The notes: a model not told the origin generated them from the letters alone. 64,000 bases of DNA from Podospora anserina (GCA_017654855.1 CM030334.1:1736001-1800000); one strand, 5' to 3'; positions 8,329 to 60,473 are shown, numbered from the stretch's first letter. Numbers and translations are program-made.

Positions 8329-8814
8329 TTACTCATCCCTACCAACGTTTACACAACAAGCCCCCCTCTTCACCCACCCAGTATATTTTTTAGGATTCCT
8401 CGAAAACGCCTCCAACAACTCCCGCCTCTTCTCCATCTTCCTCTTCTCCTTTTCAATCTCCCGACAAGTCAACTCCATCTCCCTCCGCAGTACCAATTGT
8501 CTAAGCCGCTCCTTGGCAAACGCCTCCACCTTCTGCCTCTCCTGTTCAGCAATCCAGTCCTCATAGATCTTCTTCGCCATCTCCACCCCCCGTTCCCTCT
8601 TTTCCTTCTCCATTTGTTCCACCACAGGCTTCATCCTCATCCACGTCTTCCTCCACTTCCTCCCCGCCTTTCTCACATCCCCTACATCAAGCGGATCTTT
8701 TCTTTTCACCACCTTGTCGTCCACCAGCTTGTCGTCCACCACCTCAACATGATCATCCTCCATTTTCTGTTGCCTCCTACCCCGTCGCTTAAACACCTGT
8801 AGGAATCCCATCAC
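8329..8814 (-). CDS. 161-codon charged coiled-coil ORF in frame with, and immediately after, the GOT1 TAG (candidate readthrough/edited extension)
   Basis: GTT TAG GTG ATG GGA... stays open to TAA at 8329. K/E/R-rich with a VVDDKLVDDKVV duplication. Confidence 0.5.
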   Translation of the reverse strand: MMGFLQVFKRRGRRQQKMEDDHVEVVDDKLVDDKVVKRKDPLDVGDVRKAGRKWRKTWMRMKPVVEQMEKEKRERGVEMAKKIYEDWIAEQERQKVEAFAKERLRQLVLRREMELTCREIEKEKRKMEKRRELLEAFSRNPKKYTGWVKRGACCVNVGRDE

Positions 8815-9358
8815 CTAAACAGGCAACTCAGCATTCCTCCTCGCCCCCAAGCCCGTCCTGTCAACCAACATGCCCACATACGGCCCAACAACGGGAATAT
8901 TCCTCGCAAACCCAAGAATCGTCCCCAAAAAGTCCCCAAACAGGATCAAAATCCCGTACAGCTCGATAAGAAAACCGATCAGAGGCCACCGGAGGAAAAT
9001 CAACGTCAGGCCGGAAAAGAAGGCGAGAGTTCCTTGGATTTTCTGTCGGCGGGCGAAAAATACGGCTGTTTTGGCAGGGCCGATGATGATTGTTAGGCCG
9101 ATCAGGAAGAGGATCTGGGGGCGAAGGGTTAGTGAGTGGTGGTGCGAAAGGGGAGAGGAAGAAGAAACGTACATTGCCCATTGCGAGCATGGCTCTGTCG
9201 AAGAAGAGGAGTACACCCCCTATGAGAAAGAAGCCGCCGCCTGAGCAGAAGGCCACTCCGACCTCTGGGGAGGTTTGTTAGTTACTACCTTGAGGGGTGG
9301 GTGGGATGTGAGGAGGGGGAGGGGGGAACGTACTCTGCGAGTCTGATAACCACATCAT
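8815..9358 (-). CDS. GOT1: Got1 family Golgi/ER vesicle transport membrane protein, 138 aa (exons 9358-9334, 9264-9173, 9114-8815)
   Basis: Spliced product [55 protein letters not shown]...LFGDFLGTI...IPVVGP. Two GTACGT..CAG introns. Confidence 0.93.
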
Positions 9359-10651
9359 CTTCTTGTCTCAACAACGTCTCTGCTTAATGATTGCACCAGC
9401 CAAGAGAGCTGTCCAGCACGCCACCACAGAATCGTGATGATGTGTCCCTAGCACCACGATGTGTTCCTCCGAACACGGTCTCCGAATTGCCTCCCCCACA
9501 CCTTGTGAGAGACTGCTCGGTCTGCTTTTTTGTTGACGTTTGTATCGTGCGTAGGAAGAATCCCGTTGGGTCGAGCGGAAAGTATGACAGGTGCTGCGGT
9601 TTCCTGATCCCGGCGGTGCTATCGTGGCGGTGTTCGGGGTGAATTTGGAGAAGGGTACAGTCGTCGTCAAGACGATGGTCGGCGATCGTTGGTGGTGTGA
9701 AGCCTTGAATCAAAGTATCGTTTTAGTCGGGCGAAAAGGGTAAGGTAAGTAATATCTGTCCTGTCGAGAAGAGGAATCAAAAAGCTGCTGCTGCCTAGCT
9801 CGCAATAGGTAAAACTGTGTTACAGATGATTCGTCGTGGTGTGTAAAGTGTCAAGAGTTCAAAAACACGAAAGCAGTTGGATGATGGATGGGAATAAGCT
9901 GCAACAGCAAGCGCAACGCAACAGCTTGCGACAGGAAGGGACAACGCCAAGAGGGACATTTCTTCAGGGGTTCTCTCGCAGACGGAAAGGGGGCCTAAGC
10001 ATTTCTTTCTCGTTGCGGCAGGCAGGGCCCTGGTTTGAAAGATGGAAATATGATTGGCTGATGACAAGACTCCACTCTTGGGAGCTGTTGGTCTTTTCTT
10101 GAATTTTTGAAGAAAGTTAAAATCATCTTTCTTGCATCGAAGAAACATCTGAGGATGGACCAAGCTGGTTGAGCAATGAGCAGCAACAAATACCCAAAGC
10201 CGACAGGATGATGTATTCTTGGGAAAAAAGACTGCCAGTACTGACAGACCTGTCAGCTCTTATTCCAATGGCCAAGGTTAATGACGGTAGGTATATATAT
10301 CTCGCTTTTCTCTCATGTCCCCCTCAACACAAAAACACATGCCGCGACGGCTCCCATCGCTCGTCGTTGGGAGCACCCCGAGTTTGGTAATCCCGATCCT
10401 TACCCGGAAGTCTGTCGATACTCAGGCAGAGAGCAACTGATCACGATTAAGCCGGGGCGTCAACTTGATACTCCTGTCGAGAGGCAGCGAGTTGCATAGA
10501 TGGGGCCTGACTTTGTTGGTCAAACAATTTATTATCTTGATATTTATGATTCTGTTGTGGAACTGCTGCCATGCCTTTGCCCTGCTTCCGTAACGCCGTG
10601 CCTCCCAATCATAAAACAAATGAACGCCATTCCCAACCACTGGTCCCGCTT

Positions 10652-14963: not shown

Positions 14964-15269
14964 ATCAGTTTACACAGAGACATAGAAGGGAGAGAATGCA
15001 GGTGATCGTGGGACAGGAAAGGGCGTGATGGTTTCGGATGCCTGGAGGGTCTGCATAATGCGATAGGCATAGCAGTGTTATAAGATGTTTATTCTTGTAT
15101 TGTTCCAGTTTTGGGACTGTTGAAAATGTCCTTGCGAGAATTCTCTCGTGGTGTGAACACCTCATATGTCTGCTGCCCCTTCTACACCTAGACTTGGGAC
15201 TGCTAAGCATGGCTACTATCCTCTCATAAAACCCATCACATATCAACACACAATCCGCCCCGAACAACC

Positions 15270-15388
15270 ACATACGACCACAGACAGCTGAAAATACGGG
15301 ATCCCGTCCGCTCTCCCCTAGTCAAACAGCTGATCGCCAGACTAGTACTCAGGTGGGTGACCACTGGGGAATCCCTGGTGTTGTATGT
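15270..15388 (+). rRNA. 5S rRNA, dispersed copy of a divergent type (119 nt)
   Basis: Ends ACATACGAC...GTTGTATGT pair. Conserved CCCGTCCGCTC, TAGTA and GGTGGGTGACCAC blocks. T-run Pol III terminator directly after. Confidence 0.93.
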
Positions 15389-15868
15389 TTTTTGTTCTCC
15401 ATACCGGTGGATCTTTTTGTGGTGTTGGAGTCCTTGACTGACTCGAACATGTTGATCGGGTTAGGGTTGAATGTGAGGAGTGAGCTTGAGCACGGGCCAT
15501 ATCGATTGGAGAACCGGAAGCTCGGAGCTCTTTAAGCTCAAGCTTCGAGTTGGAAGTGAACAACGTCACTTTGTTGCTTTTTGAGCCTCAACTTTGTCTT
15601 TTTGAACCGGTCGACTGAAACGGAGCTGGTTGTACGGCATAATTGGGACTCAATCTCCGTTTTCAGAGAAGAGGCGTCGACTTGCTTGAGGAAACGGCAT
15701 TGACATCTGCGAAGAGCTGCCGCCAAGATCAAGCTTCACCACCACCACCACCACCACGTCAACACAGTTACAACACAACACATCCACATACCACCACCAA
15801 CTTTCATCCACACCCTACAACCACAACCACACATCCCAACCAGAAAAACGCGCAAGAAAGGAGCAGCA

Positions 15869-16834: not shown

Positions 16835-19429
16835 CTATACACCATACTCAATCTGTCCCATCGGCCTATCCTCCTCCATGCCCGGAGCCATAAAGTTCGT
16901 CCTGGGATCACCCGTCTCCTTGGCCGCCGAGCAGCGCGCCATCGTCGGGGAGCTATTTTTAATGTCAGCTTCATCAACCACACCAAAAAAAGAAGAAAAA
17001 AATAAGAAAAGAAAAACATACCTTCTAGAAATCACATCCGTAAAATAAAAGTTCTCCACCACCTTCCTCAACGGCTCCCCACTAACCTTCGCCCCCTTGT
17101 TCTGCTCCACAAGCTGCACCTTGCTCAGCTCCCTCAGCGCAACCGGCTCGACAACATCGTACGCCGCCAGCGCAGGAGAAATCTCCACCATCCTGTCCCT
17201 CAGCTGAGCCACGTCATCATACGGCAGCGGCGCCCCAAGGAACTCGCTCACCGCCCGGATGATCTTCCAGTCCGTCCTGCTGGCGCCCGGCAGGCCCGTC
17301 GCGGCCCTCGTCATCTGCGTGCGGCCCTCCGTGTTGACATAGGTGCCCGCCTTCTCCGTGTACGCCGCACCGGGCAGGACAACGTCCGCAATCTCGGCGC
17401 CCTTGTCACCATGATGGCCCTGGTAAACAATGAACGCGTCCTTGGGGACGTCGGCCGCGTCAAACTCGTCAGCACCCAAAAGCCAGACAAACTTGGGCTT
17501 GGTGTTGGCCACCTCCTCGTTGGGGACGACGAAGCCGACCTCAAAGGCGCCCGCGCGGGAAGCCTGGCGCTGGAGGACGTTGTAGCCGCTCCACTCCTCG
17601 GTCTGGAAGTTGCCGGCGTTCTTGTCGACGAAGCTGCCGACGACCTCGTAAAAGGCCTTGGCGTCGGGGTGCTCCGTGACACCAGAGCCAACAACAATCA
17701 TGGGCCGCTTGGCGGAAGCGAGCTTCTTGCCAAACTCGCCACTGAGAGCAGTCTTGAGGGCCTCAAGGTCCCGGCCGAGGTGGTCAAACTCAAAGGTAGA
17801 CTTCCACGTCTCGCCAACAACACCAATCTCAAGATCAGAGCGGAGCCATTGCTTCCTGATGCGGGCGTTCAAGACCGCAGCCTCATGTCTGGGGTTGGTG
17901 CCAACGAGAAGAACGCAGTCGGCAGACTCGATGCCCCAGATCTTGGAGTTGAAGAGGTAGTTGGACCGGACATCAACACCGTGAGCAATAGGCTGGCTGC
18001 CGCCGGGAATGTCGAGAGCGAGGTTATCCGAACCAAGCTTGTTGGCAAGATCCTTCATGGCGACCAAAGACTCAACCTCGGTCAGAGCGCCAGCAATAAC
18101 CTTGAACTCGTTCTCCTTGGGAGCCAGCGTCTGGTAAGCATGTGAAATCTCGGTAAGAGCCTGCTCCCAAGTAGCCGGCTCAAACTTGCCCTCCCTGCGC
18201 ACCAGAGGAATCGTCAACCTCTGCGTCTTGAGACCGTCGCAAGCAAAGCGAGTCTTGTCGTTGATCCACTCCTCGTTCACATCGTCATTCAAACGAGGCA
18301 AGATGCGCATGACCTCCAAACCCCTCGAGTCAACCCTGATGTTGGATCCCAACCCATCCAACACATCAATCGACTCGGTCTTCTTCAGCTCCCAAGGACG
18401 CGCCCGGAATGCGTACGGCTTCGAAGTCAGCGCACCGACAGGGCACAAATCAATAACGTTACCCGACATCTCCGAGTCCAAGTTCTGCTCGAGGTAAGTG
18501 CCAATCTGAATATCGTTGCCACGACCAGTCGAGCCCATCTCGGGGGCACCAGCAATGTCGTTGGAGAAGCGGATGCACCTCGTGCAGTGAATACACCTGT
18601 TCATGCTCGTCTTGATCAGAGGACCAATGTTCTTGTCCTCGACCGCGCGCTTGCCGCCAATCTCGTGAAACCGGCCACGATCAGCGCCGTAGCGCATCGA
18701 CTGATCCTGGAGATCGCACTCGCCTCCCTGGTCGCAGACGGGGCAGTCGAGGGGGTGGTTTGCGAGCAAGAACTCCATGACACCCTCGCGGGCCTTGTGT
18801 GTGAGGGGCGAGTTGGTCTTGACGACCATGCCGGGCTGGACGGGCCACGCGCACGAGGCGACGGGCTTGGGGGCGTTCTGGACTTCGACGAGGCACATGC
18901 GGCAGTTACCGGCGATCATGAGTTTCCTAGAGACACATATCTTATCAATATCGGTGTTGTTGTTGTTTGTTGTTGTTGACACCATTGGTGACATACTCAT
19001 GGTAGCAGTATCTGGTTTGAGGAATTCCATGTTAGCATCTCTCCCTTCCACTAGTCCGTGGACTTGAACATACCTGGGAACGGTCACACCCGCCTTCTCG
19101 CAAGCTTGAATGAGCGCGGAACCAGCTATTATTCACCCCCCCCAAGACCAAATCAGCAAAACCATCCCCCTTTGCCTATGAAACCTTTATCGCGAGGGAA
19201 AAGAAAGAGAGCTCGGCCTTTTCTTACCCTCAATCGAAACCTTCTTCCCATCTATTCACATCTCCAGCGTCAGCACTTGTCCCTTTGCATCCCAAAGACT
19301 GCGATCCTCACCAATGGTAAGCTCAACCTCAGCCGGCCTCACCGTCGTCGTAGAAAACGTCCTGTTGGCGACCAAGCTGGCTCTGGCCCGCGTCCGCCAA
19401 GCCGAGCGAGCCAATGTCTGCCTCAACAT
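16835..19429 (-). CDS. nuo78: NADH:ubiquinone oxidoreductase 75/78-kDa Fe-S subunit (introns 19311-19252, 19227-19126, 19073-19012, 18996-18927, 17021-16953)
   Basis: Mitochondrial presequence MLRQTLARSAW. Spliced [21 protein letters not shown], plus HPLDCPVCDQGGECDLQ, RCIHCTRC and DLCPVGAL Fe-S motifs. Confidence 0.96.
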
Positions 19430-20523: not shown

Positions 20524-21864
20524 TCATCTACCTCCACACAACCTCCCCCCCCCCTCCCTCCCAAACCCTCGTTTCCCTTCCACCTCCCTCTTTCTCTCCT
20601 CCTCCTCCTCCCTCTCCCTCTCCCTCTCCTCCCTCACCTCCCTCCACTGCCGCTCCTGCGCCGCCCTCCTCGCCCTCGGACTCAAAGTCTCATACCCCTT
20701 CTTCTTCTCCCCTTCCCTCTCCTCCCCAACAACATTACTCGCATTAGCAAAGATCGTCGCCAAACAGTTCGAGTTCGGAGGCATCCCCTTTTTCTTGACA
20801 ACCCTCTTCTTGACAACCCTCTTCTTGCTTGAACTGCCAGTGCCTGGTGGTGGTGTTTCTGCCTCAGCACCACTAGCTGTCTCTATACTCGGTCTGCTCT
20901 TCTTCACCGGCGGCTGCTTTCCAACCGCTTCATCATCACCACTGTGCTGCGGAGATAAATCATCAGCCAACCGCTTCTGGGGGGGGTCGTTGCTGATGGA
21001 GAGGGATCCGAGTTTGTCCAGTCCCGTCGAAGAGCTAGAGATGGGCAGGTTGGGTCGGGTGGTTACCATCGTCGGTGTAGACAAGCTGGAAGGGCTAGGG
21101 ACAGCTGGAGTGGGAGAGATGGCGACAGGCTTGAGACTGGACGACTTTATCGATCTCTTCTTTTTGGTCGAGGATTCGGTAGGCAACATGTAGGTTTGTT
21201 TTCGGGGAAGACTGCTGTTGCCAGATTGGGGAGTGATGTTGGTGTGGTTCTGGATGGTTCTCTGAGGAGCTGGCATTGTTGAGTGGGGTGAGGCTGTCGC
21301 CGTTTCAAACGGTGATGAAGTCGTCTTTGCCGGCAAGGGGGATTGTTGTGTAGAAGATGTACCCTTTTTAGACGGCATGGAGGCCACTTTTGTCATCAAT
21401 GGACCTGGTGTTGTCAAGGGCAGGGTCTTCTTCGACCGAACCGAGGTTTGCTTTTGCGTCAACGAAGCCTGTGCCGCCGACGGTGAGGCTTTCTTTGACA
21501 GATGCGAGATTTGTTCCGGCATCAATGAAGCCTGTGCTGCCGAGGGTGTAGCTGTGCTTGACGAAAGCGAGGTTTCATCCTCTGTCAACGAAGTGATCTT
21601 TGACAATGGTGATGGTGACGGTACATGTTTTGATCGCAGCAACACCTGTCTCGGTGTGATCAAGCCCTGCTGTTTCGTGGCCGACGACTCCTGCTTCGCC
21701 AGTTCCGAAAATGTCTTTGCCAAGTCCAAATCTTTCTCCTCCCCCGAAGCCAAAGGTGTCCCAGACACATCCAATGAGTGATCTCCCGATCCACGGTGTC
21801 TCTTATCGCTCCCAACAGCATCCCCGGAAACCCGGACGCCGTCAACAGTTGAACCCGTCGCCTT
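20524..21864 (-). CDS. 446-codon Ser/Thr/Pro-rich ORF in frame with, and immediately after, the TAG of the 21865-22500 gene (candidate readthrough/edited extension)
   Basis: GCT TAG AAG GCG ACG... has no stop until TGA at 20524. First ATG only at 21522. Internal in-frame repeats (PSAAQASL x2, KKRVV x2). Confidence 0.6.
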   Translation of the reverse strand, partial: KATGSTVDGVRVSGDAVGSDKRHRGSGDHSLDVSGTPLASGEEKDLDLAKTFSELAKQESSATKQQGLITPRQVLLRSKHVPSPSPLSKITSLTEDETSLSSSTATPSAAQASLMPEQISHLSKKASPSAAQASLTQKQTSVRSKKTLPLTTPGPLMTKVASMPSKKGTSSTQQSPLPAKTTSSPFETATASPHSTMPAPQRTIQNHTNITPQSGNSSLPRKQTYMLPTESSTKKKRSIKSSSLKPVAISPTPAVPSPSSLSTPTMVTTRPNLPISSSSTGLDKLGSLSISNDPPQKRLADDLSPQHSGDDEAVGKQPPVKKSRPSIETASGAEAETPPPGTGSSSKKRVVKKRVVKKKGMPPNSNCLATIFANASNVVGEEREGEKKKGYETLSPRARRAAQERQWREVREEREREREEEEERKREVEGKRGFGREGGGRLCGGR

Positions 21865-22500
21865 CTAAGCACCCATCCTCTCCTCCGGCCTGACCTCAAA
21901 CTCCCTCATCTTCTCCACCTCCTTCTCCACATACACCGCATACTTGTCCCTGATGCCATTCATCGCATTCTCAAAGCTGTCCAGCTCGCTGATCGAACTC
22001 TCAATCAAAAACATCAAGTCCCTCACCGTCTTCTCCCTCACCGGCAACGGCTTGTCCGCCGGCTCCGGCCTGATAGCCTGCTTCAACGGCAGCACAGCTT
22101 CCGACTTGACATTGTAATCCTTATTCGGATCAGCCGGGGCGCTCACACTCGCCAAGAAGGAATCCTCCTCCTGCGGCGTGAGAGCAGGGCGGTAGTCCTG
22201 ACCGAGCTGATTCTCGGCCTCTTCAGCCTCGTTGATAAGCCGCTGTTTCTCGCGATCAAACATGTAGTACAGATTCTCTCTCGACCCCTGGCGGTGAAAC
22301 TCGATACTTTTGAGAATGTGCTCCAGACGCTGCATCCGGCCCTGCAGGGGTGTCGCTGTGGTGAGGTCGAAACTGACGGGGACGAACATGTGACCAGCTA
22401 CGTTCCTAAGCGGGGGGATCTTCTCCTTCTCCTCTTTGACAGGCGGCTTGAAGGAGCGGTCGAGGTCCATCAGATCTCCGAGGTCGAAGGAGCCCTCCAT
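21865..22500 (-). CDS. Hypothetical protein, 211 aa
   Basis: Intronless ORF with coding-like codon usage and a predicted helical/coiled-coil character. Family not recognised. Confidence 0.75.
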   Translation of the reverse strand: MEGSFDLGDLMDLDRSFKPPVKEEKEKIPPLRNVAGHMFVPVSFDLTTATPLQGRMQRLEHILKSIEFHRQGSRENLYYMFDREKQRLINEAEEAENQLGQDYRPALTPQEEDSFLASVSAPADPNKDYNVKSEAVLPLKQAIRPEPADKPLPVREKTVRDLMFLIESSISELDSFENAMNGIRDKYAVYVEKEVEKMREFEVRPEERMGA

Positions 22501-23587
22501 GATGGATGATGAGGTGGTTGCAGAGTCGAGTCAAGTCGAGTCGAATAATATTTTGACAGGCTTTCTTGAGAAGGGAATGCTACATATACCGGCTTTTCTG
22601 GTGACTCGGTTACTAAAAAGTACAAACAGCTTTAAATGCGGCGTATCATAATTACCTCGGCAATGGTTTGTTTCTGCGGTTGCTGTTGTTGGAAAACGGA
22701 GTGTGTGATCTTGTGAAGTCGAGAGAGAAGCTTTGATATTTGCCCCGCCACAAGACAACATCAACGACACGCCTAGTGACCCCGCCACTTCACCGCAACT
22801 CGGCGGAAGGAGCGATGTGAAATATGCAGAGGAGGGTTCAGTGGCTGACTGGGCTGTGGAAGGCTTTTTTTCTTTCTTTCTTTCTTTTTTTTTTTTTGTA
22901 ATTTTTTTTAATTTTTTTTTAATTTTTTTTTGCAACAATTGTAAGTGCTCATATTCAAGGTTAGAGATTGACGTCTTGGCCGCATCTCGCCCTCAATGCT
23001 CGAGGTTGACTAGGTTGGTTTTGTATCTTCCGTCTTTGTGTCTACAACTAATCGTCTTGTGATATTCGTACAAACACCCGTTGATAACAAATTCGTTTGT
23101 ACCGTGCTAGGAGGCCAGGCTTATCAAGATCGGATGAGGCAGGCGAATATATGTCATATCCTGTGTTCTACGTTGACATTTGAACTACTATAAAATCAAG
23201 ACCATGGATATCCCAACAGGTCTTCCCGAAATGAGCTCAGTCATGGTTTTGTCGTGATCCCAGAAAGCTGGCAGTTGACCTTTCATTTCATGTAGACACC
23301 CTCAACCAATTGTCTACGTTAAACTTACAAATGTACTCTTACAGTATCACTTCAACGTTCATGTGTTTACACATACCTTGAGCACTTGAACAAACACATA
23401 CAAGTCAATGAAGCCCTCACGACACATCAAATCACATCAACATCATCCAACACGGAACTCACCCTGAACCGCACAACTGAGATCAAGCACCACTGTCAGC
23501 AAAATAACAAATACGTGATATTAACAAAGTCCATCAGAACAAGGAAAGGGTAAAGCACCTTTATGTCCGTTGGCCACCCTTCAGAAT

Positions 23588-29967: not shown

Positions 29968-30077
<110 letters not shown>

Positions 30078-31217: not shown

Positions 31218-31896
31218 TTTGGTGTAGGACGCTATGAGGTATATGTGAGTTTGTGAGGGTGGTCTCGGTGGTGATGATGAGGGTTTTATAAGCGCTCACT
31301 GTAGGTAGTACCAGGTTAACTCCGATGTCGTGAATGTGGCTTAAATGTCGAATTCGAATTCCCAATCGAATAAATGGCTGCAAGAGAACGGCACCAGCGT
31401 GCCATCCCGGCCTCGGTCCCGGCAAGGCGGGAGCGGGGCACCCCGCAGCGGCGGGAGGGGGGCACGGGAGTAGATGCGGGGCGTCATCCCATCGGCTATG
31501 GCGTCATAGGGTCTGGGGTTGGTTTGATCTGATAATCTCATAATCCCATATCAAAGAATTCATCAGATTGCCACCTCAAGACAGAACTCTGCAAAAGTCC
31601 ATGATTCATACATATGTTTCTCCACGGGTTCGCATTGGGTGCTTATGCCAAGACAGACCCCTGTACCACCCTCCATGACGTTCAACGACTTGCCGTTGAC
31701 AGCCGCCACTCACTGCGACAGCCCCGCGATGTCAAACCATCGCTGATTGATAAGCCATTTCTTTCACAGCCTTATACAACCCTCCCCTTTTTTTTTGCTT
31801 TCTTTTTTTCGCCATCACCCTCACAGCTCTGCTTCAAACAAACAGTCCTCAAACCTTGTAAACCCCAACCTCAACCATTTCACCAGCGCCGCGCCT

Positions 31897-38527: not shown

Positions 38528-41108
38528 ATGCCTGGCGCCGTGGCCACGGGCCATTCCCACCGCCCGACTACCAAGCAGCGGAACAAGGGCTTCAAATCGC
38601 GAAAGGCAACCAAGGGTCAGCTTCGGGACGCTGCCAAAGGTATGAGTCACGCCGTGCTCGGGGAACCATGGGGGATTGGGGTCTAAAAGGGGCAATGAAT
38701 GGGCTGCACAGAACAGAGGACTTTGGAGAATTTAGTTTGCAACAGTCGGGCCGTTGGCTGACATTTCCGAACCAACAGGCAGAATCGAACCCGGACAGCG
38801 CAAGACGATCCACCAGCAAGCCATGTCTAAACTCGACCGAAAGAACCGTGCGAAACAGAGGCAGCAGGAGAAGGCTAGGGAACATGCCAGGGAGACTTCG
38901 GTCTTCGCCGGCAAGGACGGTGCGCCGCGCAATGTTGCCGTTATCCCCCTGTGTGTGGATGGCGACGCTGTCGCTGCCATCAAGGCCCTGAACGAGAGCG
39001 TAGAAGCCGAGGCTGAGATCAAGGAGGGATGCTTCCGGGTGCCCGTCACTAGATTCAAGCAGAAGCTGCAGTATTTCCCTGTAACCAGGGACCTTACCGC
39101 ATGCTTGGACGCCGCTCGGGTAGCCGATTTCGTCGTTCTGATCCTCTCGGCCGAGCACGAGGTTGACCCCCTGGGAGAGCTCATCATTCGCAGCGTCGAA
39201 AGCCAGGGCATGTCCACCCTGTTTACCGTCATCCAGGGCCTCAACAAGATCGAAGCCGCGAAGCAGAGGTTGTCGGTCATCTCTTCCCTCAAATCATACA
39301 TCACCCATTTCCACCCCGAACAGGAGAAGCTTTGCAGCCTCGACAACCGCCAGGAATGCGCCAACTTGATGCGCTCGCTGTGCAACACCACGCCGAAGGG
39401 TGTCAGGTGGAGAGATGAGCGGAGTTGGATGTTGGTGGAGGATGTCAACTTTGGCGGTGAGTCCACGGTTGTCACCGGTGTGGTCAGGGGCAAGGGTCTC
39501 AAGGCGGACAGACTGGTTCAGGTTGGGGATTGGGGAACATTCCAAATCGAAAAGATCACCGCTGCACCGCTTGCGGCCCCGAAACCTGAGGGTATGGCTG
39601 TCGGCGGAGCGGAGGGAGACGCTTTGGACGCTCCTACCGAGGACCAGGATGAGCTTGCCGAGCTTGCACCGGAAGAGGTCAACATGGAGGACGACGATAT
39701 GGATGCCGCTTCCGCCGTGCCTGAGCAGAAGAAGGGAGTTTTGCTGGACGAGCACCATTATTTCTCTGACGACGACCAAGTTATTGCGCTCCAAATGCCC
39801 AAAAAGGTGCCCAAGGGCACTTCCAAGTACCAGGCCGCCTGGTTCTTGGACGGCGGTGAGGAGTCAGAGGATGGATCAGACCTCGAGGATTTCGAGATGG
39901 AGGATGCGCTAGAGGAGGAGCCAGCGAGACCAGAGGACGGCATCGAGGGTGCTGCTGGGGACGTTGCCATGACCGAGGGCGCGCCAACAGAATATGCCAA
40001 GTCGGTAGCATTCGTCGAGCCCGACGAGGATGAGGACGCTATGGGGCTGGAGGCCTATCGCAAGCAGAAGCGGTCCGAGGCCGAGGACGACTTGGAGTTC
40101 CCGGATGAGATCGAGCTCCACCCCAATGTTCTCGCCCGGGAAAGACTGGCCAAGTACAGAGGTCTCAAGAGCTTGAGGACGAGTCCTTGGGTAGAAGAGG
40201 AGGATCGCGCGCACGAGCCGGAGGAGTGGAGAAGGTTACTTCAAATTCAAGACTACCAGGCGGCCCGCATCAGATCGGCTAGAGAAGCTCTGGTTGGCGG
40301 TGTTGCCCCTGGCACTCGTGTTCACGTCCACCTCAGAGGCGTGCCATCAGAGGTTCGGGCTTCTCACAGCTCAGGCCGACCGCTCGCTCTTGTTTCTCTG
40401 TTGAGGCACGAGCACAAGCGGACCGCCATGAACATTCTCATCAACCTCCCTGCTGATGCCACAGCGCCCATCAAGTCAAAGGAGGAGTTGGTTGTTCAGT
40501 ACGGCCCAAGGAGGTTCGTCATCAAGCCCTTGTTTTCTCAGGGCGGCGCCACTCCCAACGACGTCCACAAGTACTGCCGGTACATTCACCCCGGACAGTC
40601 GGCCGTGGCGACCTTTATGGGTCCTGTAGCGTGGGGTTCCATGCCGGCTCTTTTTTACAAGAGAATTGTTCCTGGCGAGGAGACTCCCCACGACGACGAC
40701 GAGTCGGATCTGCCGCTGAAGCTGGTGGCCACGGGCACCACCATGCCCCCGTCTACCTCCCGTGTCATTGCCAAGAGGGCAATTCTCACCGGTCACCCAT
40801 ACCACATCCACAAGAAGATCGTTACCGTCCGGTACATGTTCTTCAACAGAGAAGACGTGGAATGGTTCAAGGCGCTGCCCATGTGGACCAGGAGAGGCCG
40901 CACCGGTTTCATCAAGGAGCCCCTCGGTACTCACGGGTACTTCAAGGCGACGTTTGACGGGCGGATCAACCCCCAGGACTCGGTCGGTGTCAGCTTGTAC
41001 AAGCGGGTGTGGCCCCGTCCTGCGGAGCCGTTGAGGGGGCTGTTGCTTGACCCTGAGCAGGTGCCTGACTTGGTGGAGGATGATGCTATGGATGCGGATG
41101 CTGAGTAG
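38528..41108 (+). CDS. TSR1: Pre-40S ribosome assembly factor Tsr1 (intron 38640-38778)
   Basis: N-terminal HSHRPTTKQRNKGFKSR, plus EFPDEIELHP..ARERLAKYRGLKSLRTSPW and RTGFIKEPLGTHGYFKATFD. Confidence 0.94.

Positions 41109-42739: not shown

Positions 42740-42777
<38 letters not shown>
42341..42777. repeat. Simple-repeat cluster: (TGG)7, (CTT)13, 4x ATGCAAG-headed 14-15 bp units, (TA)n(TG)n
   Basis: Visible at 42341-42363, 42428-42466, 42678-42734 and 42741-42777. Confidence 0.9.
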
Positions 42778-45167: not shown

Positions 45168-47826
45168 TTAGCGGTACGCGGCAACACCACCGCCACCACC
45201 ACCGCCACCACCACCACCACCACCTCCATAGGGGCGGCTAGGACGAATGGCCGCCATGGAGGAGGGACCAACACCAGGACCAGGCCGGGTTGCGACGGCG
45301 TGGTTGGTGCAGAGCATGCCGACACGGGAACCAAACTTGGAGCCACGGAGAGACACCATGTGCTTGCGAATATGAGCGGCGACAATCTCGCGATGCTGGG
45401 GGTTGGCGTGCGTCAAGATGTACTGGATGAGATAGTTACCGTACTGATCGCTGGCGATGTCGATAAGGGGAATGCGGGGACGTTCGTGCCGGCCCTCGCA
45501 GACACGGTCAAGATAGCGGCCCAGAAACTCGGGGCCACCAATCTTCAGACACTTCTCGACCACCTTGGACGCAAACTGGTCCATGCTGTACTCGGCGGCA
45601 TATCGAATGACATGGTCGATGGCTCGGCTGCGGTCAGCCGGGGCGCCATGCTCGCAGATGTGCTGGATGCACCAGTTGCCAAACTGGCCATGAGCGACAA
45701 TGTCGATATTGGCAAGCACCTCCTCAATGCAAGGACGCTGTAGACATCCATGTTAGCGATCGCCAGCACCGCAGAGCAACGTGACAGCACAAACCTTGTC
45801 CTCCTCCAAACAATTCTCAAAGATGTTCTGCACAACCAAACTACCCGTCTCGCCCAAGGCAACCTCGTGCCACATGCCGCGCAGCGACTCGTTGACATAC
45901 TTCATGATCTGGGGAGGAGACTCGGTCCAACGCAGCTCGAACAGCTTCTGCCAGACGTGGCAAGCATAACGGTGAATGACCGTCTCGGGAATCCGGCGCA
46001 GCAGCTCGTGAACCATGATGGCCTTGTACTCCTCGGGCACCGAGTCGAAGGCCTTCTGAACCACATGGCAGCCAAAGGGGTCCATCGAGAGATTCAGAGT
46101 GTTTCCGCGAATCGCCTCGGCAATCTTGACCACCTGTTCCGGGGTGCCATGCTCAAAGCAGCGCTGCACCAAGAAGTTGCCGAACCGGTTGACCATCAAG
46201 GGGTAGGCCTGGGCAACAATCGCCTCCACAATGTCGTACTTTTGGTCAGGGGTGCCGACCTTGAGCTTTTGCTGCAGAAAGATGGAGGCTTGCTGGTCAT
46301 TGTTGCACACAATCTTGTCGACGATGTACTTCCAGTCGCAAGTGACGTTGCGGTCAAGAAGGCGGCGATAGTTGAGAGGCTCGGTCGTGGCAGAGACGTA
46401 GGTCTGGCCTTCGCTGGAAATGGACTGCAATTCAAGCGTCAGCATGATGCTTCAAGCAATAGCCCGTTTGAAGCTCACCTCAGTCTTTCCCCAGGGTCCC
46501 TGGGAAGAGGAGGTGAACTCGGTGGCATGGGGTGAGAGTGGAGACCCAACCTGTTGCTGCGGGTAGGGGGGATACATCCCCAAGCCCATGCCGCCGGCCA
46601 TGGGGGCCTGATTGCCGTAGGGATAGCTGAGAGCGGTGCTGTCATAGGGGCCAGCATTCATGTTGAAGCCGCCGCTGTAGTTGGACGAGGGAGCGTAGCG
46701 GCTGTCGTAGCGATTGGTGCGGCGTCCCATGGGCCTCATCATCTCCTGGTCAGGCGGAGCTCGATCCTGGCGATACACCTCCAGGCCTGTGTGGTTGTAT
46801 GAGGTTTCGTACCCTGCGGTGGGGGCGCGGGGATCGGTCCAGGGAGTCGCCTGGGGCGCACCTGTCACGGCGGTGGTCTGGGGGAACTGACTGGGATAAG
46901 AAGGCTGCTTGTTCCAGATACCGCGAGCGCGGCTCATGCCTCCTGTCGACATGGGCTCGGGAATCTCGGCGCGGGCATCGTCGGGAACAAGCCAGCCCGG
47001 CTCGCGAAGATAAGGCAGCTTGGCGGAGCTGCCGCAAGTCGGACCTCCCGAGAGAGCCCGAGCAATCGGGGAGACAGCGCCGGTAATCGACGAGGCAAAG
47101 TCGGATTCGACGACACCAAGAGCTGGAGTGACGCGCCCACTCTCAAGACCGTAGCGGTTCTGCGACTCGAGGCGTGAGATGTGGTTGTGAGCTTGAGCGA
47201 GCTCGAGCTTCAAACGCAAAACCTCCTCAGTGCTGGCCTGCGTCTCGTTCTGGGCGGCGCTGGCAGGTCGAGTGGTGGGGGCAGTCTGCGACGAAGGGAA
47301 GCCGTCCGTGGCGGGCGTGATGGGCAGAGAGCTGCAGGACGATTGGTGGTCCAGGGCTCTGGTGTGCACAGCATCCTCGTCCGAAGCCTTGCGCATGTCG
47401 CTCTGATGCTGCAAGATGGCAGACTGCTGCTCGGAAATCTTGGCGTAGAGTTTCTCCATGGGGTACGAGTCGGACGGAGGCGGCTCGTGTTTGATCTTCA
47501 CCTTCTGTTATGATCAGTCCAATCTTTGACAGGAGAGTTGAGTGGCAGCACCAACCTTGGGATAGCTCTGGTTGGCCAGCTTCGAGGTGCTGAGGGCGCT
47601 GACGTTCTTCTTGAGGGAGACGGGAAGGGAGCTGCCGTCCTGTTGCAGAGCGGGTCAGAAACTTATCCATTGCCTGTCTGTGCAGCGAGTGAATGCGGAG
47701 GGGCAATGCCTGAGATGAGTGGGCCGCAAACTCGTCAGAGTTTTTGGAGTTTTCATCGTGGGAGCAGCTCTTGGAAGCCTGGGTACGTCGCTCCGTGGGA
47801 GAGCCGCTCATGGCTGCGGTCGACAT
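45168..47826 (-). CDS. Pumilio/PUF RNA-binding protein (introns 47709-47640 [putative GC-AG], 47555-47505, 46478-46425, 45794-45738)
   Basis: Puf repeats NRFGNFLVQRCFE, DPFGCHVVQKAFD, GQFGNWCIQHI, DQFASKVVEKCL and DQYGNYLIQYIL. Gly-rich C-terminus. The 5' exon structure is tentative. Confidence 0.88.
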
Positions 47827-54794: not shown

Positions 54795-56066
54795 CTAAGA
54801 AGGCCTCGCCTTGTTGGTTCCGGCACGCTTCCCGGTCTTCGTGGTGGTCTTGGGAGCAGGGGCGCTGCCGCTGGTCGATGTTGAAGACGGAGGCTTCAGT
54901 GTCTTGCGCCGTTTGGCGTCGCTGGGCCGAAGAGGAGGGATCGTGGTGCTTTCTTCGCCAGCTTGGTTTGTAAATGTGCCGCCGACCTTTCGGTGTGGGG
55001 GAACTACTGTATTGAAGAGCCTGGGGACGGAACCCGCGGTGGGAGTTGCCGCTGGGGGTCTCGTGCCGGGGGTGTTGTGCTGCGAGATGGGCGTCCTGGG
55101 CTGTGATGTGGGAGTCGTCATTGCGGGCCTTGCCCCCGGGACTTTTGGCACCGGAATAGGCGTTGCTGATGTTTTTGGGGGCTTCGAGGTTGAAGATCTG
55201 GACGGCAATGCAGACGCTTTGCCCTGTGCTTTAGGCCGTGAATCCGCTGCTGTCTTGGTCAAAACTGGCAACGCCTTGATCATCGTTGAAGTTGAAGGCT
55301 TGCTAGCCGAGGAGACCGTCTCTTCCCCCCTGATTGCCATGCTAGCAATCTCAGACGTCCGCCGCTTCTTCGGTCTGTGGGACTCGGGCGCTGGAATGGT
55401 ACTCGGTGTATCGTCCTCCCCGCTTAGGACGATCGAATCCCCTGAAGCCGAATCTGGTATTCGAGGCCGCTTACTACGACCGGCAACCGAACCCACCGTC
55501 ATCGCCTTCGATTTAGCAGCAGGCTCCTCAGAAGGGACTGTCTTTTTCAATGCCCGAGACGCTGGCGGTGGTGAGGAGATGCGCATTCTAGAAAATGCCG
55601 CGCTGGAAGGTGTATTTTCAGCATTGTAATCTGGAAGCTGGACCTCGCCCATAGCAGCGGTCGGCTGTGGGGTTCCCGAGTTTTTCAGTATTGACTTCAA
55701 CGGGGTGCTGAGTCTGTTGATCAATCTCATCGGTATCGGCATACCCAACGGGGTTAAGGCAGGTGTCGTTGAAGCCTCAGCTGGTGCCGTTGAAGGCTCA
55801 GCTGGTGCCGTTGAAGGCTCAGCTGGTGTCGTTGAAGGCTCAGTGAGTGTCGTCAAAGTCACAGCTGGTGGCTCCTGCAACATCGGAGGGGGCACGCTGC
55901 TTTGATGGTAGGAAGAGCTGGCGGCAGTCTGCGAGACTGTAATGGGTGACTGTCCATACGTAGATGGCTGCGGTTGAGCACCCCCATCACCTTTGGCTGC
56001 ACTTCCCCCGACGCCTCCACCGGTCTCAGTCCACGCCGGCCAACGTGGGGTTGGCGGTCCCAAGTC
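54795..56066 (-). CDS. 423-codon Pro/Ser/Thr-rich ORF in frame with, and immediately after, the chromodomain gene TAG (candidate readthrough/edited extension)
   Basis: GCT TAG GAC TTG GGA... stays open to TAG at 54795. First ATG only at 55883. Contains a frame-preserving 21-bp tandem repeat. Confidence 0.6.
   Translation of the reverse strand, partial: DLGPPTPRWPAWTETGGGVGGSAAKGDGGAQPQPSTYGQSPITVSQTAASSSYHQSSVPPPMLQEPPAVTLTTLTEPSTTPAEPSTAPAEPSTAPAEASTTPALTPLGMPIPMRLINRLSTPLKSILKNSGTPQPTAAMGEVQLPDYNAENTPSSAAFSRMRISSPPPASRALKKTVPSEEPAAKSKAMTVGSVAGRSKRPRIPDSASGDSIVLSGEDDTPSTIPAPESHRPKKRRTSEIASMAIRGEETVSSASKPSTSTMIKALPVLTKTAADSRPKAQGKASALPSRSSTSKPPKTSATPIPVPKVPGARPAMTTPTSQPRTPISQHNTPGTRPPAATPTAGSVPRLFNTVVPPHRKVGGTFTNQAGEESTTIPPLRPSDAKRRKTLKPPSSTSTSGSAPAPKTTTKTGKRAGTNKARPS
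55762..55843 (-). repeat. 21-bp x4 coding minisatellite (EPSTxPA units)
   Basis: GGTGYCGTTGAAGSCTCAGCT repeated four times on the + strand. Confidence 0.9.
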
Positions 56067-59000
56067 CTAAGCGGAGCCGACTGTTGATCCCTTGTGTTGA
56101 CCAATGCTGAGTGCACCAAAGATGTTTCGCCATGAATCGACCGTTATGTGTGAAAAGCCACGCCCCTCCTCCTCCTGGTCCTTGTACCACTCCGTGGTAG
56201 GTCGAAACCGATACTTCATGTACTGTGAGCGTCGCCCATACCTGTTGCGCCAGAGGCGGGCTTCTTCAAAGAGCCTGTTGGTACACTTGGATGGGGCCCC
56301 GTCGTCCGACAAGGGCCGCCCTGTAGCGCGAGGTGGGTGGAAAATGATGCGGGCGTCTTCCTCATCCGATGTCTCAGAATCCCGGATACCCATCTCCACA
56401 TCGTCCTCGTCAGTAGCTGGATCCGTGGCGAGCTTCACCCTTTTGAATCCTTTATTGGGTCTCAACATGCTGGTACGCGGCGCGGGAATAAGTTTCTTAA
56501 ACTGGAACTCGGTGCCCAAGGCTTGGAGAAATAGAGCCACCACATCAATGTCGTGCGGAGATTGGCATTCTTCCGGGACCATGTAACCCCCAAGCCACAC
56601 ATCGGTCAACCTGGTGCCGGGATTCCTTTCCCCTGTATGCTCCCGTACATGCTTGATCAGTTGCCGCTGCATGAACGTAAGCTCGCCCTCAGTGGGCTGA
56701 CGGTCTCCAAACCTCCTTGGGGCCGCAGGATCCCAGATGATAAGCTCGGCGTCTGTCCACGGTCTCTTAAACGCATCACGTGGCCGATAAAAGACGAGCC
56801 AGGGGTGTCGTTTTGGCGTGCGGTCGTCAGGCTTGTTGTCGGGGTCCCACTCGTCGGGGATGGTATAGAAGAAACCGACATAGGTATTGAACCTCGTGGT
56901 CCCATGCCTTCCTCCCCATGGAAACCCCCATTTGAACCAGCTCGAGATGGTGTTCCAGTGCAGTGTGAAATCTTCGTAATGATCGCCCATGTCGCTATCG
57001 GACCACGAAACTGGAAACCCGAACAAGATCCAGAGGCTGGAATTCCATTCGCTTGGCCCCACATCTTTCAGCATCTCAGCAAGTGAGTGCTGTGATATGC
57101 GACTAAAGCACTCGCTGGAGACCTCGTGCATTGCGAAGGCCTGATACACAGAAGCAGGGGCTGCAGCAGAGGTGGCGGCTGGTGCTATACCTGCGCTCTC
57201 AGCAACAGCGTGGGCTTGTCCGGATTGCTCGGCCTGCGTGTTGCAAACACGGTAGTGCTCCAAGGTACCCTTCAACACGTAGTCTGAGTCATTGATGGTG
57301 CGGCTGGTGTACCTTGGAACGGCGATTTCTCGCTCGCCTCTTTCAGACCGACGCGCTGTTATGGAGTCGTCTGTACCAAGAACGTAGAAGTGGCGGAACT
57401 GATCCAATCGCAGTGTTGACCAGTACCCAAACCAGTTGACGAGGCTTTGCTCGTCATTGGGGTCGATCTTGTCAATAGCATAGACCAGCGTGGCGCTCTC
57501 CTCGTTGTCACCAACAGGCGGGAGTTTTCGACGTCTCAGGTCGTCCAGCTCATAGGCCTTTGTAGCGGCAGTAAACCGGCTCTCGCAATCTTCCTTGCTT
57601 AAACCTTTCAAGTTTTCGAGAATGGCAAGATTGGCCGTGCTCTCCATCGCTGCTGGAGAGGCTAGCAGCTTGGCTCGATCATGCTCCTTCTCCTCAGCCA
57701 AGTCCCTGAGGTAGGCTGCAAAGTCCCATGCGGTAACAAGACGACATGTTGTGGATTTGGCAAAGTACATCAGAAACCAGTCAATGATTTCGAGGGCTCG
57801 AGTTGGTTCCGCTACCAGAAAGCTTGGGGTCAATAATATGGCCGCCCCTAGGGGAAACAAGCGCGTGAGCTGGAGTTGGCCTGGAGGCACCACAGAACTT
57901 TCTTCCAACAGCGAAGTTGTTGATGGATACATCGGGAGCTTGCTCATCGGCTCTGTAAAGCACCAAAACTGATCATCTCGGCTAAGTAAGAGATGTCGCA
58001 GATTCGGGAGCCTGTGCAAAGTCCACGCCATCAGCTCATGTACGATGACCACACCCGCTGTCTCTTCTGAGCTGAGCTTGTTCTGGAAGGCATACCAGCT
58101 CCCAGGATGGTCGCTTGTGAAGATACAGCAGTTGGGCTCACATGCACGGAGCCAGTGAAATAGCAAGAGACGAACTTCGACCTTTGAGTCAGGAAATGCC
58201 AGGAAGAAGTTATGTGTCGATGCGGGCTTCAAGCTGGTTGGTAGCAGCCTCTGGTAGTCAAAACCGAAGAACTTTTCCATGATCAGTTGCCGATTTGAGG
58301 ACTCCTTGCCAGCGCCAGGCGGCTTGGGTGGCACATCCCGGGGTGGCGGCAGCAGGGCCAGGAGGGGCTCGTGTGGTGTAAATATGTAGTACAAGAGCTC
58401 AAATTCAGATGGATCTGACGCTGGAAGTCCCCTGAGCTGAACGGCATTCCATTCTTCACACTTTGACGGGTATATGAGAATGCTGAAGTCTGGCTGAGCA
58501 CAAAGCAGTCCCATAATGCTGGCTCGTAAAGAACTCGCCACATTTTGTAGCCTTTGTTGGTCGGTATTAGAACTTAAGCCGCCAAAGGCCAAGCCAGTTT
58601 TAACCATTGAGTGCAGTGCGGTAGCTACCGACGTAGCAAGGCAACTGTGGTCAAACTCCAAGCTCTCCGTGGCTAGAAACCTTGCATACAGCTCATCACG
58701 AGTCCCATCAGGTAACCCGTTGAAAGTTGTTTGAATACATTTGGACCCAGGCTGGGGCTTGCCAAACCTAACCCGCTTTTCTGAACAGGTATTGCGTTGG
58801 GGTATGATGGTAACTGTTGGCTCAGGAGCAGACAATGTAGGAGGTGGGGTAGGAGGCCGAGCAGCGAGAGATGCTGCAGGCCGTGGAGTGGCCTCAACTT
58901 GATCTTTTTGCACAAGAGTATTATCGTCCAAGTCCATGGGATCCGGCTCACGGAATTCGATGACGCTGTTCACGTCGTCATCCCATCTCACCGACTTCCG

Positions 59001-60473
59001 CTTTTTCAAAGGGGGCCTTGAGATTGGTGCCGTGTGTGCTTGTGGTGATGATGGCAGGCATGCTGAAGGCGGTGGCAGGCCCGCTGAGGCTGGCGCTGGG
59101 TCAATTGTTCTTGGTGAGATTCCTGCCGACGTCGCTGTGAGGCCTGCTGAGGTTGCCGGCACTAGGCCTGTCGAGATCGGTGCAAGGCCGGTCCGACTGG
59201 AGGAAATGGGTGCTGTTATGTCTTCTGGGTCCGACTCCAGCTCCATCGAATAGTCGCCAACAAAAAGGCTGTCGTCTTCCGGTAGATCCGTCGGTTGTGC
59301 AGTTTCCTTGGACATCTTTCTCGCTGCAGCAGGCCCCTCGGTCAGGGGGAAGAGGGCTACCTTTGAAGGGTCAGGGGCAATGTCTTCCCTCGCACGGCTA
59401 CGAAGTTCGGCCAATCTCCCAAGATGCATGTTGCTGAAGGGCTTGGGGTCCTTTGCGGGATTGGACATAACCTCCTCAATGACAGGCCGTGGTTTCCTTA
59501 CTTTACCGCCAGTAAAGATGTTCCCCGTCTTGCTTTGGACGGTCTTTTGGGTCGACTTGCGGGCCGTTGTCTTTTGGCCCGACGGCGCTCTTTTGCTAGA
59601 TGCGGCACCCTTGGAACCGAGGTTTGATTCCTTGGTCTTTGATTTTGACGGGCCGCTCATGTCGTCTTTACTTGCTTTTCTTGCAGTTCCCTCGTATCCA
59701 GTGGTCGACGGAGCTGTAGCCTGCCGTTTCTTTGTGGAAGATGATGCCAGTGGGTCGGAGGTCGCTGCAGGTTTGGCTAGTTTGCCTGGGAGGCTTGCTG
59801 GCCTATCCTTGTTTGGTTTTGACAAGGCCGAGGACTTCAGAGGCTTGGACTTTGTTGGCGATTTGGGAGCAGTGGTCTTAATAGGCCTTGCAACGCCCTT
59901 CTTATAAATCGAGGTCAAAGATGGTTTTCGTGCCTTGGGTGGCTTGGGCCGAGGGGCCGACACTTCCACAACATCGCCATCCTCACTCGCCTCATCACTA
60001 CTCGAATCATCTTCTGGAATAGCACTTGACTTGGACGATGATGCTGGCAAAGGCTCGGTCAAGGGAAGACCCAGCCGGGCGCGCTTCGCATTACGAAGAT
60101 TGTGCCTTTCTCTTTTCTCCCGCTCCTTTTGTTGTTGAACTGCAAAGTACCTGTCGACATCAAAAGGCTTCTCTTCGCCAGCTTCTTGCTTGGCCTTGGT
60201 CTCTGCCCACTGGGCAATCATATCATCACCAAAAATCTCTGCGGGCTCCCAAGTGCTGTCCCAGAACGGATCAAACCGGGTAGCATCCCACTGAACGAGA
60301 TAGTACATGATTCCGTTTTGGTTTGGGCGTTCAGCCAGAATCGATTCGACGACATACTCCTCGTCGTCGGGGGGAGGGATTGTGGATGTCAATGAGATCG
60401 CATCATCATCGCTCTCAGCCGGGCCGTCGTCCAGCCTCGATGGCCAACTCTCCACGAGGATATTCTTGAACAT
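56067..60473 (-). CDS. Large chromodomain-containing protein, about 1468 aa (Chp1-like architecture)
   Basis: N-terminal chromodomain EEYVVESILAE..YYLVQW..STWEPAE, a long disordered linker and a globular C-terminal half. The start codon is uncertain. Confidence 0.85.
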   Translation of the reverse strand: MFKNILVESWPSRLDDGPAESDDDAISLTSTIPPPDDEEYVVESILAERPNQNGIMYYLVQWDATRFDPFWDSTWEPAEIFGDDMIAQWAETKAKQEAGEEKPFDVDRYFAVQQQKEREKRERHNLRNAKRARLGLPLTEPLPASSSKSSAIPEDDSSSDEASEDGDVVEVSAPRPKPPKARKPSLTSIYKKGVARPIKTTAPKSPTKSKPLKSSALSKPNKDRPASLPGKLAKPAATSDPLASSSTKKRQATAPSTTGYEGTARKASKDDMSGPSKSKTKESNLGSKGAASSKRAPSGQKTTARKSTQKTVQSKTGNIFTGGKVRKPRPVIEEVMSNPAKDPKPFSNMHLGRLAELRSRAREDIAPDPSKVALFPLTEGPAAARKMSKETAQPTDLPEDDSLFVGDYSMELESDPEDITAPISSSRTGLAPISTGLVPATSAGLTATSAGISPRTIDPAPASAGLPPPSACLPSSPQAHTAPISRPPLKKRKSVRWDDDVNSVIEFREPDPMDLDDNTLVQKDQVEATPRPAASLAARPPTPPPTLSAPEPTVTIIPQRNTCSEKRVRFGKPQPGSKCIQTTFNGLPDGTRDELYARFLATESLEFDHSCLATSVATALHSMVKTGLAFGGLSSNTDQQRLQNVASSLRASIMGLLCAQPDFSILIYPSKCEEWNAVQLRGLPASDPSEFELLYYIFTPHEPLLALLPPPRDVPPKPPGAGKESSNRQLIMEKFFGFDYQRLLPTSLKPASTHNFFLAFPDSKVEVRLLLFHWLRACEPNCCIFTSDHPGSWYAFQNKLSSEETAGVVIVHELMAWTLHRLPNLRHLLLSRDDQFWCFTEPMSKLPMYPSTTSLLEESSVVPPGQLQLTRLFPLGAAILLTPSFLVAEPTRALEIIDWFLMYFAKSTTCRLVTAWDFAAYLRDLAEEKEHDRAKLLASPAAMESTANLAILENLKGLSKEDCESRFTAATKAYELDDLRRRKLPPVGDNEESATLVYAIDKIDPNDEQSLVNWFGYWSTLRLDQFRHFYVLGTDDSITARRSERGEREIAVPRYTSRTINDSDYVLKGTLEHYRVCNTQAEQSGQAHAVAESAGIAPAATSAAAPASVYQAFAMHEVSSECFSRISQHSLAEMLKDVGPSEWNSSLWILFGFPVSWSDSDMGDHYEDFTLHWNTISSWFKWGFPWGGRHGTTRFNTYVGFFYTIPDEWDPDNKPDDRTPKRHPWLVFYRPRDAFKRPWTDAELIIWDPAAPRRFGDRQPTEGELTFMQRQLIKHVREHTGERNPGTRLTDVWLGGYMVPEECQSPHDIDVVALFLQALGTEFQFKKLIPAPRTSMLRPNKGFKRVKLATDPATDEDDVEMGIRDSETSDEEDARIIFHPPRATGRPLSDDGAPSKCTNRLFEEARLWRNRYGRRSQYMKYRFRPTTEWYKDQEEEGRGFSHITVDSWRNIFGALSIGQHKGSTVGSA

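Follow-up and report, generated by a model that had tools for sequence, protein, structure and literature searches.

In Sordariomycetes, adenosine-to-inosine (A-to-I) editing of mRNAs is reported to occur in sexual tissue only (PMC4817773, PMC9605262). UAG codons are frequent targets in this group, each species having hundreds of such sites (PMC11156358, PMC13123824), and mRNA editing in Sordariales other than Podospora has been described for Neurospora, Sordaria and Chaetomium (PMC13123824, PMC5381528). An edited UAG in exons misannotated as introns is known from 69 "PUK1-like" genes of F. graminearum, most of them devoid of a known domain, and 323 genes of this species are subject to stop-loss editing (PMC4817773); another study counted 71 "restorative" cases of premature stops (PMC10776026). 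The stop-loss extensions described for FgDBF2, FgMOB1 and FgCDC14 comprise 24, 11 and 27 residues (PMC13123824), while stop-loss editing of Sordaria macrospora wc-1 adds 131 residues, with peptide evidence (PMC6794485). Hidden C-terminal isoforms reached by UAG editing are an established idea, and Fusarium and Neurospora have hundreds of known sites. The present analysis concerns a 64-kb stretch of Podospora anserina DNA (GCA_017654855.1 CM030334.1:1736001-1800000; 64,000 nucleotides, hereafter the window), in which three genes end in a TAG that is followed directly, in the same frame, by a long open tail. What is new here is the Podospora candidates themselves, the length of their tails and, in one gene encoding a putative chromo-domain protein, the separation of an ancestral stop from a conserved, lineage-specific extension.

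The three TAG triplets read GTT-TAG-GTG at 8815-8817, GCT-TAG-AAG at 21865-21867 and GCT-TAG-GAC at 56067-56069 (sites 1, 2 and 3 of genes 1, 2 and 3; all heads, tails and TAGs of these genes are on the minus strand), as a preliminary description of this DNA had claimed. The stop-to-stop frames closing there, 8815..9219, 21865..22530 and 56067..60518, are each continued in frame by a second one, 8329..8814, 20524..21864 and 54795..56066, which confirms the proposed tails of 161, 446 and 423 sense codons. The preliminary description was also right that the second and third tails start without methionine (first Met at residues 115 and 62), and the basic clusters that it mentioned are visible in the translations of all three. 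Three such tails are more than chance. The window contains 94 stop-to-stop frames of at least 150 codons, for which the next in-frame run has a median of 29 codons; this run reaches 150 codons in 9 of the 94, the tails of 446 and 423 codons being the two longest. As for the other seven, four lie opposite a longer frame, as judged from their coordinates, one is the 5′ leader frame running into the head of gene 2, and two fall within a three-part frame at 45168-47507. Dinucleotide-preserving shuffles never stayed open throughout in the tail frame (0/5000 for tail 1 and 0/2000 each for tails 2 and 3), with means of 9.0, 12.7 and 9.6 expected stops, and the other two sense frames of the real tails hold 9 and 12, 13 and 18, and 15 and 16 stops, respectively, against none in the tail frames.

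Two trivial sources of open frames were considered and rejected. The tails are not shadows of plus-strand genes, since relatives match the minus-strand frames and the G+C content at third codon positions (GC3) is highest there, and tail 1 is not open by virtue of its purine-rich composition, as its other frames have the 9 and 12 stops mentioned above and none of its 5000 shuffles was open. The shared identity of the three stops is weak evidence alone, because TAG closes 28 of the 94 long frames (TGA 49, TAA 17). TAG is also the stop of several frames in the window that rank among the largest and are clearly coding (e.g., 1968-4124, 16835-19132, 31747-33876 and 38736-41108).

Transcription was followed with Logan contigs from four runs, aligned over about 20 kb spanning sites 1 and 2. 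These runs are labelled as RNA only by guess; their nature was judged from the contigs, in which introns with GT..AG ends are skipped, so that all four must be RNA and can reveal splicing. Variants were listed from a threshold of 1%, and Logan contigs drop rare variants. The A of the TAG at site 1 (8816) is covered in all four runs and that of site 2 (21866) in three of the four, with no differing letter. For gene 3, a 1468-residue open reading frame (ORF) from independent Logan assemblies is 100% identical over the covered part (17%) of the query region; it has the length of the gene-3 head, which places its end at the third TAG. Assembly errors are thus ruled out as the source of the TAGs.

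The head of gene 3 (56070..60473) comprises 1468 codons of a putative chromo-domain protein: the frame matches Pfam Chromo (PF00385) over residues 55-104 with 20.8 bits, below the cut-off of 25.1, and the same family is precomputed for 6 of the 10 listed matches of gene 3, whose relatives are named "chromo domain-containing" by their sources. Behind the TAG at 56067..56069, tail 3 (54795..56066; 54798-56066 without its stop) runs for 423 codons. Its composition is strongly biased (63% S/T/P/A/G/Q), with invariant short motifs, and the Pfam search returned no family for it. When the tail alone was searched against 1.84 billion representatives, it found one solid match, the C-terminus of a 1802-residue protein of Triangularia setosa. 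Joined models, i.e., proteins spanning head and tail, make up 3 of the 10 proteins found for gene 3 (T. setosa, C. samala and A. backusii; 1802-1816 residues), and across genera the tail is 0.52-0.56 identical, compared with 0.66-0.73 for the head. It is conserved from its first codon on, even though its first 61 codons contain no Met.

In each of the three joined models, 25 residues immediately before the TAG are missing, corresponding to 75 bases at 56067..56141 that end at the TAG. These residues align with a conserved C-terminal motif of six homologues that consist of the head only, from Triangularia verruculosa, Lasiosphaeris, Coniochaeta (three proteins) and Fusarium (one protein), which end between a few and about 30 residues after the motif. 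As the omitted stretch is a motif kept in all six, the stop of gene 3 stands at the ancestral C-terminus. Tail 3 was found only in Podosporaceae. Judged by these protein models, tail 3 is apparently an addition made in the Podosporaceae behind an ancestral stop, which would make gene 3 a true stop-loss layout. Tail 3 itself closes with a second TAG (TCT-TAG-GAG, 54795-54797, minus strand), behind which a further 33 codons are open.

Gene 2 has a shorter, helical head of 211 codons from its ATG (21868..22500), the TAG at 21865..21867 and a tail of 446 codons closed by TGA (20524..21864; 20527-21864 without the stop). No Pfam family was found for either part. The tail is rich in S/T/P/A, with a conserved block immediately after the TAG and a conserved C-terminal helix. 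When the read-through protein was used as query, with targets limited to 367-1169 residues, all three proteins found (from Podospora pseudopauciseta, Cercophora samala and Apiosordaria backusii) spanned both head and tail. Their tails are 0.95, 0.59 and 0.43 identical to that of the window, compared with 0.98, 0.79 and 0.73 for the heads, and the joined models stay in frame up to the conserved C-terminus. They lack 22, 18 and 22 residues, respectively, before the position of the TAG, and the alignment resumes with the residues that follow it in the window; the omitted stretch, at 21865..21930, measures 66 bases (54 in one species) and ends at the TAG. Contigs of three runs (20744-22597, 20728-22597 and 20738-22597) cross this supposed intron and the TAG unchanged and without a joint, while the contig piece listed for the fourth run ends short of site 2. 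Transcribed sequence thus extends at least 1100 nucleotides past the TAG of gene 2. An AlphaFold model built on a four-sequence alignment is of low confidence (mean predicted local distance difference test score, pLDDT, of 44). In this model the head forms long helices (pLDDT 60-80), one of which (residues 165-212) overlaps most of the stretch omitted as an intron (residues 201-222); residues 213-590 fall below a pLDDT of 50 and a confident helix follows at 618-653. Tail 2 is thus predicted to be mostly disordered. For gene 2, the evidence favours neither the stop nor the full length as the original state.

In both genes, therefore, the relatives display the same annotation signature: all six joined models omit 18-25 codons ending exactly at the TAG of the window and resume at the next codon. 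Evidently, a small intron that keeps the frame was introduced into the relatives' gene models so as to bypass a stop codon. The supposed introns of gene 2 (GTGGAG..) and gene 3 (GTCGAT..) have neither a G at +5 nor a CTRAC motif, compared with 12/13 and 9/13 (the latter within the last 35 bases), respectively, of the validated introns; these were 13 of the 15 splice joints listed among a larger number, two that enclose retained letters having been left out. These introns are probably false, given that the RNA of gene 2 is unspliced in three of the four runs, that the stretch omitted in gene 3 is coding sequence which distant homologues conserve, and that both stretches are devoid of such splice signals. 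The conserved blocks behind the two TAGs are free of Met up to residues 115 and 62, and are therefore reached from upstream. Tails 2 and 3 do code for protein, and this protein sequence is conserved between genera. The preliminary description had expected annotation to split such tails off as separate genes: this is what happened in some relatives, whereas in others the stop was bridged by an invented intron. Its view of the tails as hidden C-terminal isoforms, mostly disordered or charged, holds for genes 2 and 3 as far as conserved in-frame coding tails are concerned and is much weaker for gene 1; as to their nature, tail 2 is predicted to be mostly disordered, in the low-confidence model described above, and tail 1 is 48% charged.

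The explanation that we favour is that genes 2 and 3 are single transcription units, in each of which the frame is broken by one TAG with a long, mostly disordered and conserved C-terminal region behind it, and that the tail is gained by A-to-I editing at the sexual stage; the case for and against it appears evenly balanced. In vegetative cells, ribosomes would halt at the TAG and produce the head alone. In developing perithecia, the Sordariomycete editing system, which in Fusarium consists of the tRNA deaminases Tad2/Tad3, would deaminate the A of the UAG, and the resulting UIG would be decoded as UGG (Trp), giving the head plus a tail of 446 or 423 residues. The frames, their conservation, the unspliced RNA across sites 1 and 2 and the signature of false introns are shown by the data, while editing, the stage at which it takes place and TAG retention in the relatives are inferred. 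More specifically, tail 3 could have been born behind an ancestral stop in the Podosporaceae, have been kept by purifying selection and be reachable only by recoding of one UAG, a scenario that we consider tentative and, taken as a whole, rather improbable.

The sequence context of the sites agrees in part with this explanation. Fungal editing prefers a U at -1, a purine (A or G) at both +1 and +3, and a position in a hairpin loop (PMC11156358). The preferred bases are present at site 2 (UAGAA) and site 3 (UAGGA). At site 2, the A lies in a hairpin loop in 0.95 of the sampled structures, a share exceeding that of 91% of 250 background UAGs (median 0.19); at site 3, the A is unpaired in 0.99 of them. 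Moreover, the UAG is part of continuous, unspliced RNA together with the downstream frame, as contigs bridge site 1 in all four runs and site 2 in three of the four, although contigs are no proof at the level of single molecules. If only the heads were translated, 3′ ends of at least 780 nucleotides past the TAG in gene 1 and at least 1100 in gene 2 would be needed, compared with a median 3′ untranslated region of 212-239 nucleotides reported for P. anserina (PMC9801653). The change from UAG to UGG put forward in the preliminary description is published for this layout (PMC4817773, PMC11156358, PMC6794485) and suits the context of sites 2 and 3, while no A-to-G change appears at 8816 or 21866 in the contigs of the four runs.

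Several observations weigh against editing as the explanation. The hairpin-loop share at site 3 is unremarkable (0.29), and site 1 (UAGGU) has U at +3 and an A that is mostly paired (hairpin-loop share 0.11). Compared with shuffles, the predicted folds of the 61 nucleotides around each site show no gain in stability (z of -1.19, +0.44 and -0.20 for sites 1, 2 and 3). No T>C change (on the plus strand) was present at 8816 or 21866 in the contigs of the four RNA runs, whose stage is not known. Two other T>C changes, each in a single run, at 5291 and 15026, are not in a U-A context, so that there is no sign that the runs represent an edited sexual-stage sample. The absence of A-to-G changes at sites 1 and 2 hence neither supports nor refutes stage-specific editing. 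The literature search found no report of editing sites in Podospora. TAG retention in the relatives and purifying selection on the tails are deduced from the relatives' protein models; moreover, only relatives with ..AG at that place could yield a joined model, which biases the inference of TAG retention. No spliced form occurs among the joints listed, with a minor spliced form possible among the four that are unlisted, and tail 1 has no relatives beyond one ORF of 97% identity (one match among 146 candidates).

Among the alternatives, the one that survives best, though it is improbable, is that the tails are made apart from the heads, as separate small genes, as internally initiated products on overlapping transcripts or as remnants cut off by a nonsense mutation. 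Contigs cannot prove a single transcript, and this alternative draws most on tail 1, with its ATGs near the start, its single relative, its poor editing context and no usable lead from the ESM Atlas. For tails 2 and 3, however, the best-conserved blocks start right after the TAG, with no Met for 114 and 61 codons, and there is no room for a promoter, on which the preliminary description is borne out. Nor would a decaying remnant be expected to stay in frame as far as a conserved C-terminus while retaining 43-59% identity between genera.

Gene 1 is the case in which such a separate origin is the leading reading. Its last coding exon (8818..9114), defined by the Pfam match and by RNA contigs, belongs to a gene of the Got1/Sft2 family (Got1, PF04178; E-value 1e-09, 39.4 bits, cut-off 24.6). 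The contigs of all four runs skip 58 and 69 bases with CT..AC ends at the two upstream introns (9115-9172 and 9265-9333, minus strand), and they run without a joint from 9114 through the TAG (8815..8817) and the whole of tail 1 (8329..8814; 8332-8814 without the TAA that closes its 161 codons) to 7935-8032, hence the transcribed sequence extends at least 780 nucleotides past the TAG. Tail 1 looks coding, with no stop in its own frame against 9 and 12 in the others and a GC3 of 0.68; its residues are 48% K/R/E/D. Its sole relative is a 144-residue Logan ORF (97% identity; the 146 candidates had 133-424 residues), and ATGs occur at its second codon and again 19 codons in, where the 144-residue ORF begins. 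It would thus be a separate, young and lineage-restricted ORF, or a chance survivor in the long 3′ region of Got1. On the other side, tail 1 is in frame and open from the stop of Got1, which for an unrelated ORF would be a coincidence of about one in ten by our estimate. Tail 1 is an uncertain case: it may be a third instance of recoding, but a short ORF of recent origin within an extended 3′ region is just as likely. A match of tail 1 to DUF7842 (18.6 bits, cut-off 27) was dropped as probably compositional, and the ESM Atlas gave no leads, with a best score of 0.78 for tail 1 and no usable match for head 2.

Translational readthrough of the unedited UAG by a near-cognate tRNA, at a low rate and either at all stages or wherever termination is inefficient, would account for much of the same anatomy, i.e., a conserved in-frame tail without ATG on one unspliced RNA contig. 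It would also account for the missing A-to-G changes in the four runs. Leaky stops are favoured by C at +4, by UGA-CUA and by UAG-CAR-YYA. The bases after the three stops, GTG, AAG and GAC, match none of these contexts. Podospora anserina does provide a precedent for recoding, the frameshift of PaYIP3 (PMC3777964). Nevertheless, UAG is not the leakiest stop, UGA being the one called relatively leaky (PMC4817773), and the joined models of the relatives imply an ..AG at the corresponding position, in agreement with TAG in particular (with the bias mentioned above). Taken together with the many edited UAGs of Sordariomycetes cited at the outset, these points make readthrough slightly less credible still than separately made tails.

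Alternative splicing, in which an in-frame intron of 54-75 nucleotides ending with the AG of TAG would be removed from some transcripts, perhaps in sexual tissue, is the least probable of the three: it is what the six relatives' models draw, RNA joints are known from the listed ones only (four more being unlisted), and in FgBUD14 a UAG is both edited and removed with an intron (PMC11156358), but the contigs of gene 2 are unspliced in three of four runs with no joint listed there, the candidate introns have poor signals, the gene-2 models disagree on the 5′ site (18 or 22 codons omitted), and the GT used in gene 3 is a Val codon of the protein motif kept in taxa without the tail, so that its removal would delete a conserved C-terminus.

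The closest parallel to genes 2 and 3, if they are edited as we favour, lies in PUK1 and the PUK1-like genes, which share with them an in-frame UAG in a continuous mRNA, conserved sequence downstream and a stop hidden in a mispredicted intron; it is this annotation signature that both genes produce in the relatives. They differ in that the stop of gene 3 lies at the ancestral end of the protein, so that it is no "corrected pseudogene", and in that the organism is Podospora, for which the literature search found no catalogue of editing sites. Gene 3 resembles canonical stop-loss cases in that its UAG ends a conserved protein and precedes a compositionally biased, disordered extension. The tails of 423-446 residues, however, compare with 131 residues in wc-1, and tail 3 is 52-56% identical across four genera, whereas the DBF2 extension is described as poorly conserved except in close species (PMC13123824). 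FgBUD14 offers a mixed model, in which the UAG is removable by editing or by splicing (PMC11156358) and with which the present data would be compatible; here, in contrast, no spliced form was among the listed joints and the splice signals are poor. PaYIP3 of P. anserina likewise gives two protein forms from one mRNA by non-standard decoding, with the difference that it involves a frameshift rather than a stop codon and, as described, is unconnected to editing (PMC3777964).

Whether fungal stop-loss editing is adaptive or mainly error is in open dispute: functional work exists on the stop-loss editing of DBF2 (PMC13123824), while a published rebuttal contests general adaptiveness (PMC13684035). 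The critics point out that genuine stop-loss cases are difficult to distinguish from "functional pseudogenes", because homologues in outgroups can seldom be detected (PMC13684035). Gene 3 allows the two to be separated, since the outgroups end at the stop and more than 400 residues behind it are conserved across four genera. If editing were confirmed there, gene 3 would be a clear selected extension, far beyond the cases of 11-131 residues. If the proposed origin of tail 3 holds, editing or readthrough would have exposed former 3′ sequence to selection and allowed a stage-gated C-terminal module to emerge. The presence of two or three such genes within 64 kb would then imply that the Podosporaceae have many long gated tails, hidden by false introns or cut off. 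The in-frame introns, probably false, in published Podosporaceae models delete conserved residues and need correcting, and their signature could be used to find more such genes.

Other features of the data and the window can be listed briefly. The gene-2 stretch is present in 20 sequencing runs, all with one species label. The closest relatives of the window proteins are those of Podospora pseudopauciseta (92-96% identity), Cercophora samala, Apiosordaria backusii and Triangularia, which places the window in the Podospora anserina group (Sordariales). Pattern scans of metagenomes with the alignments of genes 3 and 2 matched 156 and 418 stretches, respectively, none of which was confirmed. Over 19.5 kb, only four fixed differences separate the RNA contigs from the window, namely single-base changes at 5681 (A>G), 7594 (A>T), 13434 (C>T) and 20131 (A>G). 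Because each of the four runs shows them at full depth, they reflect a slight divergence between the strain of the window and the strain or strains of the runs, and not editing.

A dispersed 5S ribosomal RNA gene lies at 15270-15389 on the plus strand (Rfam RF00001, 89 bits, full length). The contigs of all four runs depart from the window at 15269 and 15393 and show three differences of paralogue type (15330, 15337 and 15342), which would be expected if reads of other 5S copies were mixed in. On the minus strand at 45168-47507, in-frame open runs of 351, 232 and 194 codons are split by single TGA and TAA stops, one of them in a CTAAC-like context; rather than recoding, this probably reflects a single gene whose exons are separated by short introns that preserve the frame. 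Finally, the two joints left out of the splice-signal counts correspond to micro-exons: at 6773-6983 (plus strand) and 18927-19073 (minus strand), contigs skip 211 and 147 bases and retain 14 and 15 letters, which sit at 6878, in a very highly expressed plus-strand gene, and at 18997, in a minus-strand gene of 765 codons.

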